From the NCBI GenBank assembly GCA_046546105.1, contig JBKGYN010000001.1:52441-116440 (forward strand): a DNA stretch of 64,000 nt, given 5' to 3'. Positions 33,001-39,000 of this stretch are shown here, piece after piece (the stretch's first letter is position 1; each line of letters opens with the position of its first letter). This stretch comes from Candidatus Woesearchaeota archaeon. Lineage in GTDB: Archaea; Nanobdellota; Nanobdellia; Woesearchaeales; SKGA01. The position numbers are program-made.

Positions 33001-36000
33001 AACACGAACCTCTTGCAAAATATCGTTCAGTACGGGGTATTCGATGTTCCTAGCGAGATTTATTTGCAGAGCCTGACTTATGTCTTGTTTTTCATCGGCG
33101 CATCAGTACTTTTCAGCTGGTTCTGGATGCAGACTGCCGGTCTCGATCCTCGAAGTCAGGCGAAACAGATGATGTCTTCCGGACTTCAGATTCCTGGTTT
33201 TCGAAAAGATGTCAGGGTTCTTGAACGGCTCTTGAAACGCTATATCTACCCGCTTACTATCATGGGTGGTATTTTCATAGGTCTTCTTGCTTCAGTGGCT
33301 GACATGACAGGGGCTATTGGTAGCGGTACCGGGCTTCTCTTGACTGTTATGATTATCTACAAGCTTTATGAGGAGATCGCTAAACAGCACATGGAAGACA
33401 TGAACCCTATGATGAGAAAATTCATGGGTAAATGATTTTTTTGTTTATCTGTATATTATTGATCCTGATGTGATAGAATGGTATATTCCTCGACTGTATT
33501 CGATCCGCTTCTCAATCCAGTGCTTGAAGCACTCGGCCCGCTTCCGGCTATGATTATTGTCAGTCTCGCAGTGGCGTTGCTGACCACTCTGATTTACAAG
33601 TATGCTACGGATCAGGAGAAGATGAAGTCTCTTAAAGCCACTATGAAGCGTTATCGTAAAAAGATCTCTGCTGTCAAAGATGATCGTGACAAGGCGATGA
33701 AGCTTCAGCGTGAGATGATGAAGGTGAACGGCGAGTATATGCGCCATTCCTTCAAATCGATGCTTTTTACGATTATTCCTGTCATGTTGTTTTTAGGATG
33801 GTTTGCTGCCCATTTCGCTTTCAACCCTATTTTGCCTGGAGAGAGCTTCAATGTGACTGTTGAGCTGAAGGATTCTGTTGATGGCAATGTTTCTCTGGTC
33901 GCACCTCAAAACATCACCGTTGATGATGCTGTTGTCAAGAATGGCTCTGAAGGGGTGGTGTCATGGACTGGTATTTCTGGCCCGAAAGGCACGTATGACT
34001 TTAGTGTGCGTCACGATCCTTCTGGTGAGGAACAGTTTTTTAGTGTCATAATAACTGATCAGCAACACTACGAAAACCCTGTCCACCTCTTTGAGGATTC
34101 GGATTCGGTATTTTCACGGATTGAGGTTGGCATGGAGAAACTTCTTATGTTTGAAGGTGTTCCTGTTCTTGGTAGCTTGCCGCTTATCAAGAAAGCCGGT
34201 TGGCTTGGGGCGTATATTCTCTTCTCACTTATCTTCACCACTGTATTGCGTAAAGTCATGGGTGTTGCTTGAGTTGTGTTGATATTCGTATATTCTTCTT
34301 TCTTATTCTTCTTTGACTTGTTTTCAGTATCTTTCATCTTCGAAAAACAACATTTATAAATGGTTTTGGATTCTCATCTTTTGCCCATCAGAAGATTCTG
34401 CTGGGGCTTGTCGTTTGACGGCGAGAGTGGAACTGGAAAAGTGGCGGTTATTTGTTGACACGGCTTTTCTTGTAAGTTGCTTATGAGGTCATGATATTAT
34501 GACGCGTGGAATGTTCAAATCAAGGACGTATCGTCGTGTTTCGACGAGAGTTCCTGGCGGTAGCACTGTTCGGAACTTTGTCAAGCGATCTCCAAAGCAA
34601 GCGCATTGTGCGTATTGTGGCAAACCTTTATCAGGTGTGCCTCGACAGTCATCCGGAAGTTCAAAGACTGGACGTCGTCCTGAGAGACCTTACGGTGGCG
34701 TCTTATGCTCTATGTGTTTGCGTGATGAGATTAAGCTTGGTGTTCGTGACGAGTAATTCGTAGTGGTTTGTTTTAATGGATGTCCGTCTCAGGGGCTTGG
34801 GTGACCGGTCCTGCGGATATGGTTTTTGAGAAGGAGGTTGAAAATATGGTTTTTGACATCGGAACGATTTGTGTCAAGCTTGCCGGTCGTGATGCTGGCA
34901 AACGATGTGTTGTTGTCAGTAAAGAAGATGAGAAGACTGTGTTGATCGATGGCGAGACTCGCCGTCGAAAATGCAACGTTTTGCATCTTGAGCCGACCGC
35001 TGATTCTCTGGGGATTTCTGAAGGCGCGAGCCACGAGGATGTTGTGGCTGCTTTCAAGGAAAAAGGTATCGGGATTCTTATCTCGTCTTCTTCTGAAAAT
35101 AAATCTTCAGAAGGTGGCAAACGGCCTCGTAAGCAGAAAGTCGTCAAAAAGTCTTCTTGATGAGTTTTTTTGTCTTTTTCCTTTTCTTGTTAACGTCTAG
35201 CGGGTAGTTGGTTCTTTTGCAGTGGTTGAGAGTGGGTAGATGTATTTCTTATTGTTGATGGAGATATAGTTGATTTTTTCTTCCTCTTCGAGCTCTGTTA
35301 AGTACCTGTAAAAGGTTGCTTTGGAACAGTACTTATGGGAATCGACAAATATTTTCTTGAGCTCGTGCGGTGTGCATCTCGAGCTTCCCGCTTGGCTGAG
35401 TATTTTTTCTTTGACGATGCTCTTGCGGTTCTTGCTCACTTCCTTTGCTGCGTCTCGTTGTAATGCTTTGATCGCTTCTTCCCTTTGTTTTTTCCCTTGT
35501 GGTGTGTCAAGGATGATGTATGCGTCCTCCTCAACGCTTTTTCGCTCTATAGGGGTTTCTTCGGTTTCTGCTGCCTCTTCTGCTTCAGGGATTGTTTCTT
35601 CAGCTTTAATATTTTCTTTCTCAGAAAAATCCGTTCTCAAGGGGTTGTTTTTGCTTATTTCGAGCTCTTCTACGCGTTTGTTTAGCTCGTCTAGTCGTTT
35701 GAGTATTTGTTTCAACAGTTTTTGCTCGACAGCTCTTGTTTTGTTCTCCCCGAATAAATCTTTCATGGGGTTAGGTGGTGCTTGTGTTTTTTTATGTTTT
35801 GTCTTTTGGGTCTGGGTTTCGGCCTCATGTCTCACTCAGTCTCATTTGAGACTGTGTTGAGACTGTATTGAGACTGGTTTTGAGACTATTTTTTTATTTT
35901 GAGACTGTTTTTTTCGATTTTCCACAGGAAATAAGGGGGTGTCTGTTGTTTGGATGTGTTGAGACTGAGACTGTCTCATTATTTTATTGAGACTGTGCTG

Positions 36001-39000
36001 GGTTTGGTTTGAGTCTGTGTGTCGTTTTTGATGTGCTTGCAGGGTTTTTTCGGAAAAAGCACTGGACATTCACGCATAATGTATTTAAAAGAAAGTGTCC
36101 TTATCTCTTTCAAAGCCCTCCCTCGTGGAATGCACGGGTGAAATAAGAAGGGAAACCAAGGAGGAAACCACTATGGATTCGGTAGATGTTTCAAAAAACT
36201 CCCCTGAGAAGAAATTCAGGGCAGCCCCTGTCACTGCGACAATCTGGGTTAATGAAGTGAAGACCAAAGACGGCGATGTCCGTTCGTTCAGGACTATTTC
36301 TCTGGAACGGTCCTATAAGGATAAAGAGGGGAATTGGCACAATACCGGTTCTATGCGCGTCAATGACTTGCCGAAAGCGGTTCTTGTGCTCAATAAGGCG
36401 TATGAATATATCAGTATCAAAGAAGAGGATCCTGTCTCTATAGAGGAAGAGTGATAATATGGATGGAGCTAAATCAATTCAATCCTTGCCAGGTGTAGGT
36501 GCTGCCACTGCTGAAAAGCTTTCTGCGGCTGGCTTTGACAATCTCATGTCTGTGGCCGTCGCCACTCCAGGAGAGCTTTCTGACGCAGCAGGTGTCACTG
36601 AGGCTGCTGCCCGCAAAATGATCCAATCCTCTCGTGCGGAGATGGATATGGGTTTCCAGTCTGGCGAGGATCTGCTCGCTAAACGGGAGAAGGTCATCAA
36701 GATATCTACAGGGAGTGCTAATTTTGACAGTATGCTTGGTGGCGGCTTTGAGACTGGTGCGATAACTGAGTGTTTTGGTCAGTACGGTAGTTCGAAGACA
36801 CAGATTGCTCACGTGCTCTGTGTGAGTTGCCTGGTCCGGGAACCTGATGCAGTGGCTGTGTACATCGATACAGAAAACACGTTCCGTCCTGAGCGTATCA
36901 AGCAGATTGCCGAGGGGTTCGGGGTTGATCCTGACCAGGCTCTCAAGAACATCAAGGTCGCTCGGGCTTTCAATTCCGATCATCAGATGCTTCTGGCGGA
37001 AAAAGTTGAAGATCTCGTAAAAGAAGGGAATAAGGTTCGGGTGCTGGTTGTTGATTCGCTGACAGCGCATTTTCGTGCTGAATTTGTCGGTAGGGGCACT
37101 CTTGCTGATCGCCAGCAAAAGCTCAACAAGCACATGCACGTTCTTGCCAAGGTTGCTGATCTTTACAATGTCTGTGCTTATGTGACAAATCAGGTCATGG
37201 CAAAGCCTGACACCTTTTTCGGCGATCCTACTGAAGCTATCGGAGGGAATGTCGTAGCGCACAACAGCACCTTTAGAATATACCTTCGTAGAGGGAAGAA
37301 AGGGACTCGTGTGGCGAAACTTGTTGACAGTCCGAACCTTCCCGATGCTGAATGTGTTTATGAAGTCAAAGAAAGCGGTCTTAAAGACGTATGAGGGCTT
37401 ATCTTTCTTTCTCTTCTTTTTTCTCGTTAGTTTTTTATACCTTGTCTTGTTTCAGACTCCTTGTTGATCGATTATGATTGTCCTAAAGAAAGATTTCAAG
37501 CACGGTCTTGTTTCTCTCAAGATCACGCTCTCAGACGATCTCTGGTATTTGAGCGAGCTAATCGAGCAAGGGGATGTGGTCACTGGCAAGACCGAACGAA
37601 AAATCAAGATCGGCGATGCTTCCGAGGGCAATATGAGAATCACTAGAAAGACCATGACTCTGTCGGTCGTAGCTGAAGATGTTTCTTTATCTGAAGCAGG
37701 TGATGTCTTGCGGGTTAAAGGTACTGTTAAAGAAGGTACTGATGACGTTCCTGCGGGTTCGTATCACACGATTAACCTGGTTGCTGACGCTACATTCAAA
37801 TTGCATAAGGGGAGTTGGCCTCAGTTCATGAAACAACGCCTTGATGAGGCTGTGAACAACAATGCCGAAAGCGTTCTGTTTGTATTGTTCGATCGTGAAA
37901 AGACCTTGTTTTCTATAGTTCGTCAAACAGGAATTGAACATCTTTCCGAGCACAAGAACGAGGCGGCGGGCAAACGTTATGCTGGAAAGCATGATGGTGA
38001 CATGTATGCTTCTATCGTTGAACTGGTTGAAGGTTACACGAAAACGCATTCTCCTTCATCTATTGTTGTGGGTTGTCCTGATTTCTGGAAGCAGTACATG
38101 CAAAAAGCATTACAGAATTCGTCCATCACGAAAAAACCTGTGTTTGTCACCTTGACCGCTGTGGATCGTTCGATGGTCGCTAAATTACTTTCTCGTCCCG
38201 AACTCCATGCGCTCCTGCAATCGCAGCGCTTGCAAAAAGAACAGGCTTTTGTCGATAGGCTTCTTGAAAAACTTGACAAAGAACTAGTCGCCTATGGGGT
38301 TGATGATGTTGAATCGGCTGCAATGGTAGGTGCTGTTAGCGATGTGGGTGTCACTGATAACTTCATAATAAGAACTCGTAGGGATGGGTGCTATGATCGG
38401 CTCAACAAAATTCTTTCCACAGTGGACACTTCTCAAGGGAATGTGCATTTTCTGAGAGGTGAGGACACTGCCAAGATTGTTGATGGTCTCGGTGGTATTG
38501 TTGGTATATTAAGATGGAAACTCCAATAAGGTTTGAAGATGAGATCATCTCGCTTATCAAAGGGAAGCAAGAGCTCTCTTCCCTTGACGATGACTTTATC
38601 CGTGGTGTGCTTCGAAAGAAACTCGCATCGTTTAGGGCTCCCGAACTTGATAAATATGTGTCGTTTAAGCAATTCAAACGCAGTGCTTTTTGCAAACAAT
38701 TGCTTTCTGAAACAAGAAAATATCTTCGTGACGTCTATGGTGTCTTTCTCCAAAAACCGCTTTCTGCATTCTCTCCTCTTCTTGATTCTATGACTGCTAT
38801 TGATGATGGTGTTATCGATCGGTTGCTCGAAGCTCACCAGTCTACGCGGGAGCGCGTTCCTTATTATGATGAAGTGTATTCGCTCATATGGGGTGTTTGC
38901 AAGAATCACGGTGTTTCTGAAGAATCTTTTTCAGTTCTCGATCTTGCTTGCGGTTGGAACCCTTTCGCCCTAAAGTTCTTTCCGGTCACTCCTTCTTCTT

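Follow-up and report, generated by a model that had tools for sequence, protein, structure and literature searches.

A GAGAC repeat array beside radA in a Woesearchaeota genome as candidate autoregulatory operator of a winged-helix protein family, with an embedded Orc1/Cdc6 box

We analyzed a stretch of 64 kb (“the window”) from the metagenome-assembled genome (MAG) of an archaeon of the Woesearchaeota/Nanobdellota (DPANN). It contains an array of short GAGAC repeats located between a divergent gene for a winged-helix (wH) protein and a gene for a protein of 93 amino acids (aa) which precedes the recombinase gene radA. In the middle of the array lies an origin recognition box (ORB), a predicted site of the initiator Orc1/Cdc6. 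We propose, with about an even chance of being right, that the array serves a new wH family as its autoregulatory operator, on which the wH protein assembles together with Orc1/Cdc6, and that it is neither an origin nor an integrated element. The family would consist of small archaeal (DPANN) DNA-binding proteins that have not been described previously. The anatomy of the array, its conservation, its co-occurrence with the wH gene, the fold of the protein and the sequence identity of the box were computed directly. An earlier note on this DNA had regarded the region as an iteron-like array that could stem from a plasmid, a virus or an integrated replicon, or alternatively as an operator of a recombination regulon.

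We counted 15 copies of the octamer TGAGACTG in the window compared to 3.25 expected (standard deviation 1.6); none of 100 shuffles reached this number. Eight exact copies are located in 35837-35995. The 9-mer TTGAGACTG, with up to one mismatch allowed, is found ten times in 35837-36017, the copies at 35880 (TTGAGACTA) and 36009 (TTGAGTCTG) being variants. This is in agreement with the approximately ten copies in 180 bp reported earlier. The 11 pentamers GAGAC/GTCTC in 35829-35993 form the sole cluster of at least four sites in the 64 kb, and the earlier observation of a repeat cluster is confirmed. We also found again the inverted copy at 35837-35844 and, at 35966-35978, the palindrome TGAGACTGTCTCA of 13 bp, to which the overlapping direct sites at 35961 and 35967 and the inverted half at 35973 combine; an inverted GTCTC at 35829-35833 had been overlooked. 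The first four direct copies are indeed one helical turn apart, the successive spacings of the direct sites in the left block (Table 1) being 11, 11, 12 and 19 bp. Degenerate GTCTT/GTCTG sites at 35801-35814 are located nearer to the TATA box of the wH gene than this block, and T-rich stretches lie beside the ORB at 35885-35918. Pooling 120 sites from 12 orthologous loci yields the 8-nt repeat unit T-GAGAC-T-(G/A), which is used in both orientations with favored spacings of 6 and 10-12 bp. The half-sites at about −50 and −38 from the ORB are kept within 2 bp in all 12 loci, and the half-site at +47 in seven of them. As had been noted, repeats of the protein-binding type are clustered here between divergent genes, in phase and not at random. 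The iteron-type reading was not retained, as the repeats are half-sites of 6-9 bp in mixed orientation and not iterons of 17-22 bp. A scan for bacterial sigma-70 promoters and terminators is not applicable to an archaeon; the sole “terminator” it returned is the array palindrome.

To relate the array to its neighbors, 80 species-representative loci were fetched with the 93-aa protein as anchor. A divergent wH gene occurs in 11 of the 80 loci, and the same 11 possess 8-15 upstream GAGAC sites compared to 0-3 sites in the other 69. The array is still found directly upstream of divergent wH members in other places, for example beside sulfate-assimilation genes (P0014) or beside DUF192/radical-SAM genes (P0012). 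The same picture is seen in 42 further metagenomic loci, and of 38 non-redundant wH-family loci 31 have at least three sites. Almost all site clusters in wH-bearing loci (43 out of 44) are located within 600 bp of the wH gene. The 487 kb of control DNA from Woesearchaeota lacking the wH gene contain one cluster, which is coding, and no intergenic cluster. This control cluster (L040) lies inside a gene for an oligonucleotide-binding (OB) fold protein and is not an array.

Gene and array co-occur perfectly across species and in unrelated neighborhoods, and both the half-site and the motif KYCSKATFYRY in the recognition helix of the protein are invariant. These observations point to the neighboring wH protein as the very probable binder of the array, which agrees with the earlier proposal, and the array is most likely a private binding-site cassette of this protein. 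The array belongs to the wH gene and not to radA, and only in one Woesearchaeota clade does it lie next to the 93-aa/radA operon. The operator of a recombination regulon considered earlier is only half right: the region looks like an operator array, but one of the wH gene. In the 69 species lacking the array, the 93-aa/radA operon still has promoter elements of its own.

The wH gene had been placed at 35197-35835. The gene is present, but its presumed GTG start at 35835 is replaced by an ATG (Table 1). The protein has an N-terminal coiled-coil-type helix (residues 6-40), a disordered acidic linker (43-81) and a C-terminal winged-helix domain (89-178). Its fold is a winged helix of the transcription-factor type, and the nearest folds are transcription factors. 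The protein has a single wH domain, not the tandem wH domains of Rep initiators, and shows no features of helicase loading or of a primase. Profile searches of the wH protein and of the 93-aa protein against PDB sequences returned coiled-coil noise only. The position of the TATA-like box implies that the wH mRNA would be leaderless or nearly so, and boxes of the TTTAAATA type occur at equal distance before the wH gene in relatives. The half-sites come within about 5-40 bp of this box. A winged-helix fold together with repeated or palindromic sites in the own promoter region, conserved along with the gene, corresponds to the features of an autoregulated wH transcription factor.

At 50% identity the family falls into 578 clusters. 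Beyond the radA-linked clade, a DUF192 (COG1430) gene for about 110 aa frequently shares an operon with the wH-family gene. It is located 3' of the wH-family gene, often with overlapping stop and start codons, as in L240 (3243-3566), L245 (3243-3575), L253 (3260-3625), L256 (2881-3222) and L216 (3763-4101), which suggests a conserved two-gene operon under the ORB/GAGAC cassette. The family member P0014 (L215, 5186-5304) contains seven GAGAC/GTCTC pentamers within its own coding region, in a Glu/Ser/Gln-rich linker (ESQ and SET codons). This means either that the coding sequence took up array-like repeats or that the start was annotated too far upstream.

The ORB was recognized by several means. 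The dyad core (TTCC followed by GAA(A)) is present as TTCCACAGGAAAT at 35920-35932, the G-string (GGGG[T], 2-5 nt 3' of the dyad) as GGGGGT at 35935-35940, and the motif is the same as that of the origin boxes next to the organism's own orc1 gene. Allowing up to three mismatches to the array ORB, two matches are found in 64 kb (0.06 expected), the other one being located at the canonical origin oriC. A position weight matrix built from orc1-adjacent boxes only, of this and related genomes, gives position 35919 as the best non-training match in 64 kb (21.7 bits). The array encloses the near-invariant element [T/C]TCCAYAGGAAAYAAGGGGGT in 12 out of 12 orthologous loci. The box also agrees with published sequences: the archaeal consensus is CTTCCAGTGGAAACGAAAGGGGT, an ORB of Methanomassiliicoccus is GTTCCAGTGGAAATAA-AGGGGT (PMC4153887), and TTCC and GAA are the invariant cores (PMC1904270).

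As the matrix of six closely related oriC boxes is too narrow for distant lineages, we used a generic ORB definition with controls for these. Generic ORBs occur 1.59 times per kb upstream of wH-family genes compared to 0.015 in the rest of those loci and 0.006 in the controls, a more than 100-fold enrichment. At least one ORB is found in 24 out of 38 wH-family loci, and upstream of more distant wH-family genes one or two ORBs are located, e.g. TTCCAGTGGAAATGAGGGGGTGT. A G-string running directly into a GTCT(C/G) site was counted 21 times in 173 kb of wH loci and not once in 487 kb of controls. The link to replication suspected in the earlier note exists in a form that it had not seen, namely as a canonical Orc1/Cdc6 box in mid-array.

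These observations can be combined into a mechanism. The wH protein may dimerize via its N-terminal helix, and its two wH domains, held on the flexible acidic linker, could bind T-GAGAC-T half-sites. Such a coiled-coil dimer with flexibly tethered domains would account for direct, inverted and overlapping sites approximately 6 or 10-12 bp apart. As the half-sites occupy the region upstream of the own leaderless promoter, the protein would control its own synthesis. Orc1/Cdc6 on the mid-array box is predicted to be part of the same nucleoprotein complex, since a canonical box lies at fixed distance from the flanking half-sites, and it might co-operate or compete with the wH protein. The expression of the wH gene, and possibly of its neighbors, could thereby be coupled to the state of the initiator. 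In evolution, the cassette would be self-contained and relocate together with the wH gene. Which protein binds which element, the autoregulation and any effect on radA are inferred by us.

Several points weigh against this proposal. No recognizable ORB was found in 14 of the 38 wH-family loci and neither element in seven of them; the link of Orc1 to the family is frequent and not obligatory. The ORB points away from the wH gene in the radA-linked clade and toward it in other contexts, so a simple model of promoter geometry is insufficient. Both the binding of the wH protein to the half-sites and the binding of Orc1 to the ORB are deduced throughout. In the sampled DNA of approximately 0.8 Mb, the only target detectable for the wH protein is the region upstream of its own gene. 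This is odd for a transcription factor, and a structural or titrating role would explain it no less well than gene regulation. Also, 8-17 sites are many for plain autoregulation.

Tentatively, and as a doubtful step beyond the operator proposal, the wH family could be a dedicated partner of the initiator and the cassette a non-origin docking site of Orc1/Cdc6, on which wH protein and Orc1 assemble together and sense or set initiator availability. If this holds, the cassette would be an archaeal counterpart of the datA/DARS type of initiation control or an Orc1-dependent cell-cycle switch, and its placement in the radA-linked clade could in addition make the 93-aa/RadA recombination operon responsive to the status of the initiator.

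The main rival to the operator proposal, which we consider unlikely, is an initiator-control locus. Here the nucleoprotein complex would itself be the function: the wH protein would tune initiation by building a scaffold which holds, titrates or remodels Orc1/Cdc6 on a decoy box of high affinity at a distance from oriC, with transcription of the wH gene from the same DNA supplying feedback, comparable to E. coli datA or DARS with IHF and to oriC2D of Haloarcula hispanica. With their perfect dyad and GGGGG string, the cassette ORBs approach the pan-archaeal consensus more closely than do the boxes at the oriC of the organism itself, the spacing between ORB and wH sites is strict and stereo-specific, and no target of the wH protein is visible besides the cassette. 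There is also precedent for non-origin ORBs restraining an archaeal origin via Cdc6 titration (PMC3936714). As Nanobdellota generally have a single Orc1 (bioRxiv 10.64898/2026.05.13.725050), one decoy could matter, and the cassette of the window is just 30 kb away from oriC. The number of boxes does not fit well: a cassette has one or two ORBs and no dense cluster, compared to five DnaA boxes in datA and 11 ORBs in oriC2D. Moreover, a third of the wH-family loci lack a recognizable ORB, and the closeness to oriC is established for the radA-linked clade only.

Quite improbable, in our opinion, is a plain autoregulated transcription factor, where the ORB-like element would be read by a factor other than Orc1 or would be an element of promoter architecture, its likeness to an origin box being functionally meaningless. 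The transcription-factor type of the fold, the location of the sites in the own promoter region in all contexts and the arrays without ORB in some wH-family loci are in accordance with this. The match, however, extends over approximately 23 bp including dyad, spacing and G-string, and is found upstream of wH genes in many lineages with the enrichment given above. It follows the classical ORB variants (TTCCAGTGGAAATGAGGGGGT, TTCCACAGGAAATAAGGGGGT), which is hard to explain without Orc1/Cdc6, to our knowledge the only reader of the ORB motif.

Table 1. Features of the array locus and of the canonical origin, given in positions of the 64-kb window.
Feature	Position	Strand	Description
wH gene, 189 aa	35197-35766	-	ATG start at 35766; conserved MKDLF N-terminus
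TATA-like box ATAAAAAAA	35787-35795	-	about 25 nt upstream of the wH ATG; read from sequence
Array, left block	35829-35907	.	inverted GTCTC at 35829 and 35839 adjoining the wH promoter; direct GAGAC at 35848, 35859, 35870, 35882 and 35901
ORB TTTCCACAGGAAATAAGGGGGTGT	35919-35942	+	dyad TTCC-ACA-GGAA and G-string; predicted Orc1/Cdc6 site; G-string points toward the 93-aa gene
Array, right block	35941-36017	.	degenerate GTCTG touching the G-string (35941-35945); overlapping direct sites 35961 and 35967; inverted half 35973; direct 35989; variant TTGAGTCTG 36009-36017
93-aa/radA promoter	36060-36090	+	conserved CACTGGACA 36060-36068; cgcataa resembling a B recognition element (BRE); TATA TATTTAAAA 36082-36090
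Conserved 5' leader RNA	36122-36164	+	variable hairpin 36122-36138, then invariant UGAAAUAAGAAGGGAAACCAAGGAGG with GG-GAAA-CC mini-hairpin and Shine-Dalgarno sequence
93-aa gene	36173-36454	+	first gene of the radA operon; four strands and a long helix; highly conserved
radA (Rad51/RecA-family recombinase)	36459-37394	+	Pfam Rad51, 1.5e-87
Canonical oriC	4788-6024	.	1.2-kb intergenic; inverted ORBs 4937-4960 (-) and 5826-5849 (+); third 5943-5969 (-)
orc1/cdc6	6025-7242		gene around oriC
PolD DP1	7264-8817		gene around oriC
PolD DP2	10649-14470		gene around oriC
MCM	60-2093		gene around oriC

The canonical oriC sits within an island of replication genes (Table 1), with orc1/cdc6, PolD DP1 and DP2 coming after it. 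Its unwinding element at approximately 5428-5527 has a GC content of 7% and is flanked by inverted TTTCCACAAGAAAT(A/C)AAGGTGT boxes; the oriC boxes read TTCCAYAAGAAAT[ACT]AAGGTGTG. Two relatives (L211 and L212) have the same architecture, and the unwinding elements of relatives have 0-2% GC. In five genomes the canonical orc1/oriC is 27-30 kb away from the cassette. GAGAC sites are absent from the true oriCs.

Compared to these origins, the array contains no unwinding element: its lowest GC content is 36% per 100 bp in contrast to 0-7% at oriCs, and the lowest-GC window of 60 bp near cassette ORBs averages 21% in contrast to 0-3%. In cassettes with two ORBs (the one in the window has a single ORB) eight out of eight pairs are direct and none is inverted. 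No initiator gene, neither orc1/cdc6 nor whiP, is adjacent to the cassette. According to the gene map, leftward forks from the cassette would run head-on into large ribosomal-protein operons. Because of the missing unwinding element, the ORB orientation and these head-on forks, the cassette appears unlikely to be an origin of replication.

Accordingly low is the probability that we assign to a secondary, dormant or captured origin, that is a pair of replicator and initiator, with the wH protein working on iteron-like repeats in the manner of Sulfolobus WhiP or of a plasmid Rep and the host Orc1 box assisting. The wH gene and the repeat array do relocate as a unit, and a host-initiator box lies among the repeats as in iteron plasmids, where embedded DnaA boxes have an assisting role. 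The T-rich stretches by the ORB (35885-35918) and the oriC of Thermococcales, which adjoins radA (PMC11005403), can also be put forward. These arguments are opposed not only by the GC content, the ORB pairs and the fork direction but also by the short half-sites in mixed orientation, the one wH domain without helicase-loading or primase features, the canonical oriC merely 27-30 kb off, and the absence of mobile-element genes and viral homologues at the locus. The ORB as a relic of an ancestral radA-oriC adjacency, as known from Thermococcales, was set aside, since the ORB follows the wH gene to contexts other than radA and is absent from the 69 radA loci lacking the wH gene.

Two more ORB-like boxes, ACTCCAAAAGAAATAAAGGTGG at 3026-3049 (-) and GTCCATCAGAAACGAAGGGGTT at 3112-3135 (-), were observed in intergenic DNA upstream of the TBP gene (2303-2866, -), 2 kb from oriC. 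They may be a further non-origin site of Orc1 or an outlying part of the origin like the ORB cluster at Pyrococcus dp1. The independent assemblies L213 (1-392) and L214 (1-336) both stop at the border of the extremely AT-rich origin, approximately 350 bp before orc1; it seems that contigs of these MAGs commonly break at oriC.

The surroundings of the array argue for a vertically inherited chromosomal site and not for an integrated element. The gene order ribosomal proteins, secY, L34e, L14e, wH gene, array, 93-aa gene, radA and pelota is the same in all relatives, whose wH proteins are only 36-57% identical. No mobile-element genes were found at the locus, and a mobile-element context (integrase, att sites, plasmid or viral homologues, patchy synteny) is not supported. 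A scan of the wH family against viral contigs (IMG/VR) gave no relative. The hits of the 14-mer TGAGACTGAGACTG there were limited to single, scattered matches and to tandem repeats within coding sequence, i.e. chance or selection artefacts. The base composition of the locus is unremarkable, and on the strain level the array is stable except for one indel of 1 nt. Scans for tRNAs and against Rfam found nothing in the window. GC and AT skew have no switch at the array; they have none at the canonical oriC either, and the skew test advised in the earlier note is therefore uninformative. With synteny strictly conserved in every relative, no viral relative of the wH protein, neither an unwinding element nor inverted ORBs, and the true oriC at a distance of 30 kb, the origin of a plasmid, virus or integrated element that had been supposed was given up.

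The location near the origin may also bring to mind a centromere-like site or one of chromosome organization, at which the coiled-coil protein on the array nucleates segregation or Smc-ScpAB loading, comparable to parS/ParB. We regard this as very improbable. It would be in accordance with an origin-proximal cluster of short repeats, with the coiled coil of the presumed binder and with scpB being 10 kb away in the window. Yet there is no gene for a partition ATPase or a ParB-like protein beside the cassette, the cassette is found in many unrelated positions in other lineages, and nothing points specifically to segregation. As a side observation, genes for a RadB-like short Rad51 paralogue (41883-42602, -), gyrA (43632-46049, -) and scpB (46450-47445, -) are located within 10 kb of radA, and the window as a whole is unusually rich in genes of replication, recombination and chromosome maintenance.

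The identification of radA downstream of the 93-aa gene was correct in the earlier note (Table 1). The designation of the 93-aa protein as PC4-like is not supported: no match to PC4 (PF02229, fold of the PDB 1pcf type) was found in sequence or in structure. The model has strands at 10-17, 20-30, 36-49 and 55-58 and a helix at 63-84; this topology of four antiparallel strands followed by a helix is common to Pur-alpha and Whirly folds and not diagnostic. The protein has 446 homologues, and its gene precedes radA in 75 out of 75 loci.

The promoter of the 93-aa/radA operon is probably outside the cassette. Nearly all 80 species have the element CACTGG[A/T]C (CACTGGAC box) ahead of the 93-aa gene, close before the BRE/TATA of the operon and no matter if the array is present; it represents a candidate operator for a regulator of radA. 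It is frequently duplicated at a distance of 9 or about 65-75 bp, independently of the wH cassette. Read in reverse complement (GTCCAGTG), it is similar to one half of the classical ORB dyad. The 5' leader RNA that follows is conserved, also in the 69 loci without array. Anchored single-sequence folds across the loci L011-L090 show a first hairpin whose stem sequence differs per species, then UGAAAYAARA and a mini-hairpin closed by a GAAA tetraloop, whose stem of 2 bp covaries, being GC/GC in 21, GG/CC in six and CC/GG in four species. The leader has no match in Rfam. It may represent a new cis-regulatory RNA and perhaps serves the 93-aa protein for autoregulation.

Many of the species-representative MAGs with a Woesearchaeota-type locus (L014, L016, L018, L019, L021 and others) are titled “uncultured Methanosarcinales archaeon”. 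The record of L035 is titled “Candidatus Aminicenantes bacterium”, and one Orc1 homologue is named from a “Minisyncoccales bacterium”. Such oddly titled records are probably mislabelled or mis-binned.

The control of Orc1/Cdc6 beyond origin binding is little understood in archaea, especially in DPANN with their tiny genomes and single initiator. The cassette provides a testable handle consisting of two proteins and approximately 200 bp of DNA, which can be assayed without culturing the organism. If Orc1 binds to it, the initiator doubles as a transcription factor, or the cassette is a new kind of archaeal initiator-control locus. The adjacency to radA in one clade bears on the balance between origin-dependent and RadA-dependent initiation in archaea. 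For origin prediction in DPANN, ORB-like boxes alone are not usable as markers.

Compared to known systems, the cassette resembles iteron replicons (RepA/RepE/pi, DnaA boxes) in that a wH gene adjoins its presumed binding repeats, some of them one helical turn apart, with a box for the host initiator among them. It differs from these by repeats of 6-9 bp instead of 17-22 bp, their mixed orientation, the single wH domain, the absence of an AT-rich unwinding element and its chromosomal, syntenic and vertically inherited nature. Sulfolobus oriC3-whiP (PMC4010727) is likewise an archaeal wH gene adjoining the DNA presumably acted on, and is thought to be relocatable as a unit; WhiP, however, is related to Cdt1 and oriC3 has no ORBs, whereas the present cassette has an ORB and lacks origin features, and its protein has a fold of the transcription-factor type. 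With MecI/BlaI, PadR, ArsR/SmtB and MarR repressors the wH protein shares no detectable sequence homology, and its predicted N-terminal coiled-coil dimerization and long acidic linker, the unusually large number of sites and the embedded initiator box set it apart from them.

A protein of the initiator family predicted in a promoter region outside the origin has parallels in DnaA at the promoters of dnaA, nrd and sda and in Orc1-2, the DNA-damage regulator of Sulfolobus (PMC9738581). Orc1-2, though, is a specialized paralogue reading a different short motif, while the ORB described here is of the full origin type and occurs in organisms generally having a single Orc1. The radA-oriC-cdc6 arrangement of Thermococcales likewise has ORBs directly upstream of radA, and a functional interplay of RadA-dependent and oriC-dependent initiation was reported there (PMC11005403; PMC1904270). 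In Thermococcales these ORBs are the origin itself; in our case the origin is 30 kb off, and the ORB follows the wH gene and is missing in the 69 species without it.

The combination of initiator boxes outside the origin with sites for a second protein is known from E. coli datA/DARS (DnaA boxes and an IHF site), from the oriC-proximal DnaA-box clusters of B. subtilis and from oriC2D of Haloarcula hispanica (PMC3936714), and in the window the cassette is also near oriC. In contrast to datA/DARS and oriC2D it has one or two initiator boxes, its partner is a dedicated wH protein, encoded locally and with 8-17 sites of its own, and the unit travels with the gene. The cassette hints at a link, not described so far, between the archaeal initiator and a dedicated DNA-binding partner.

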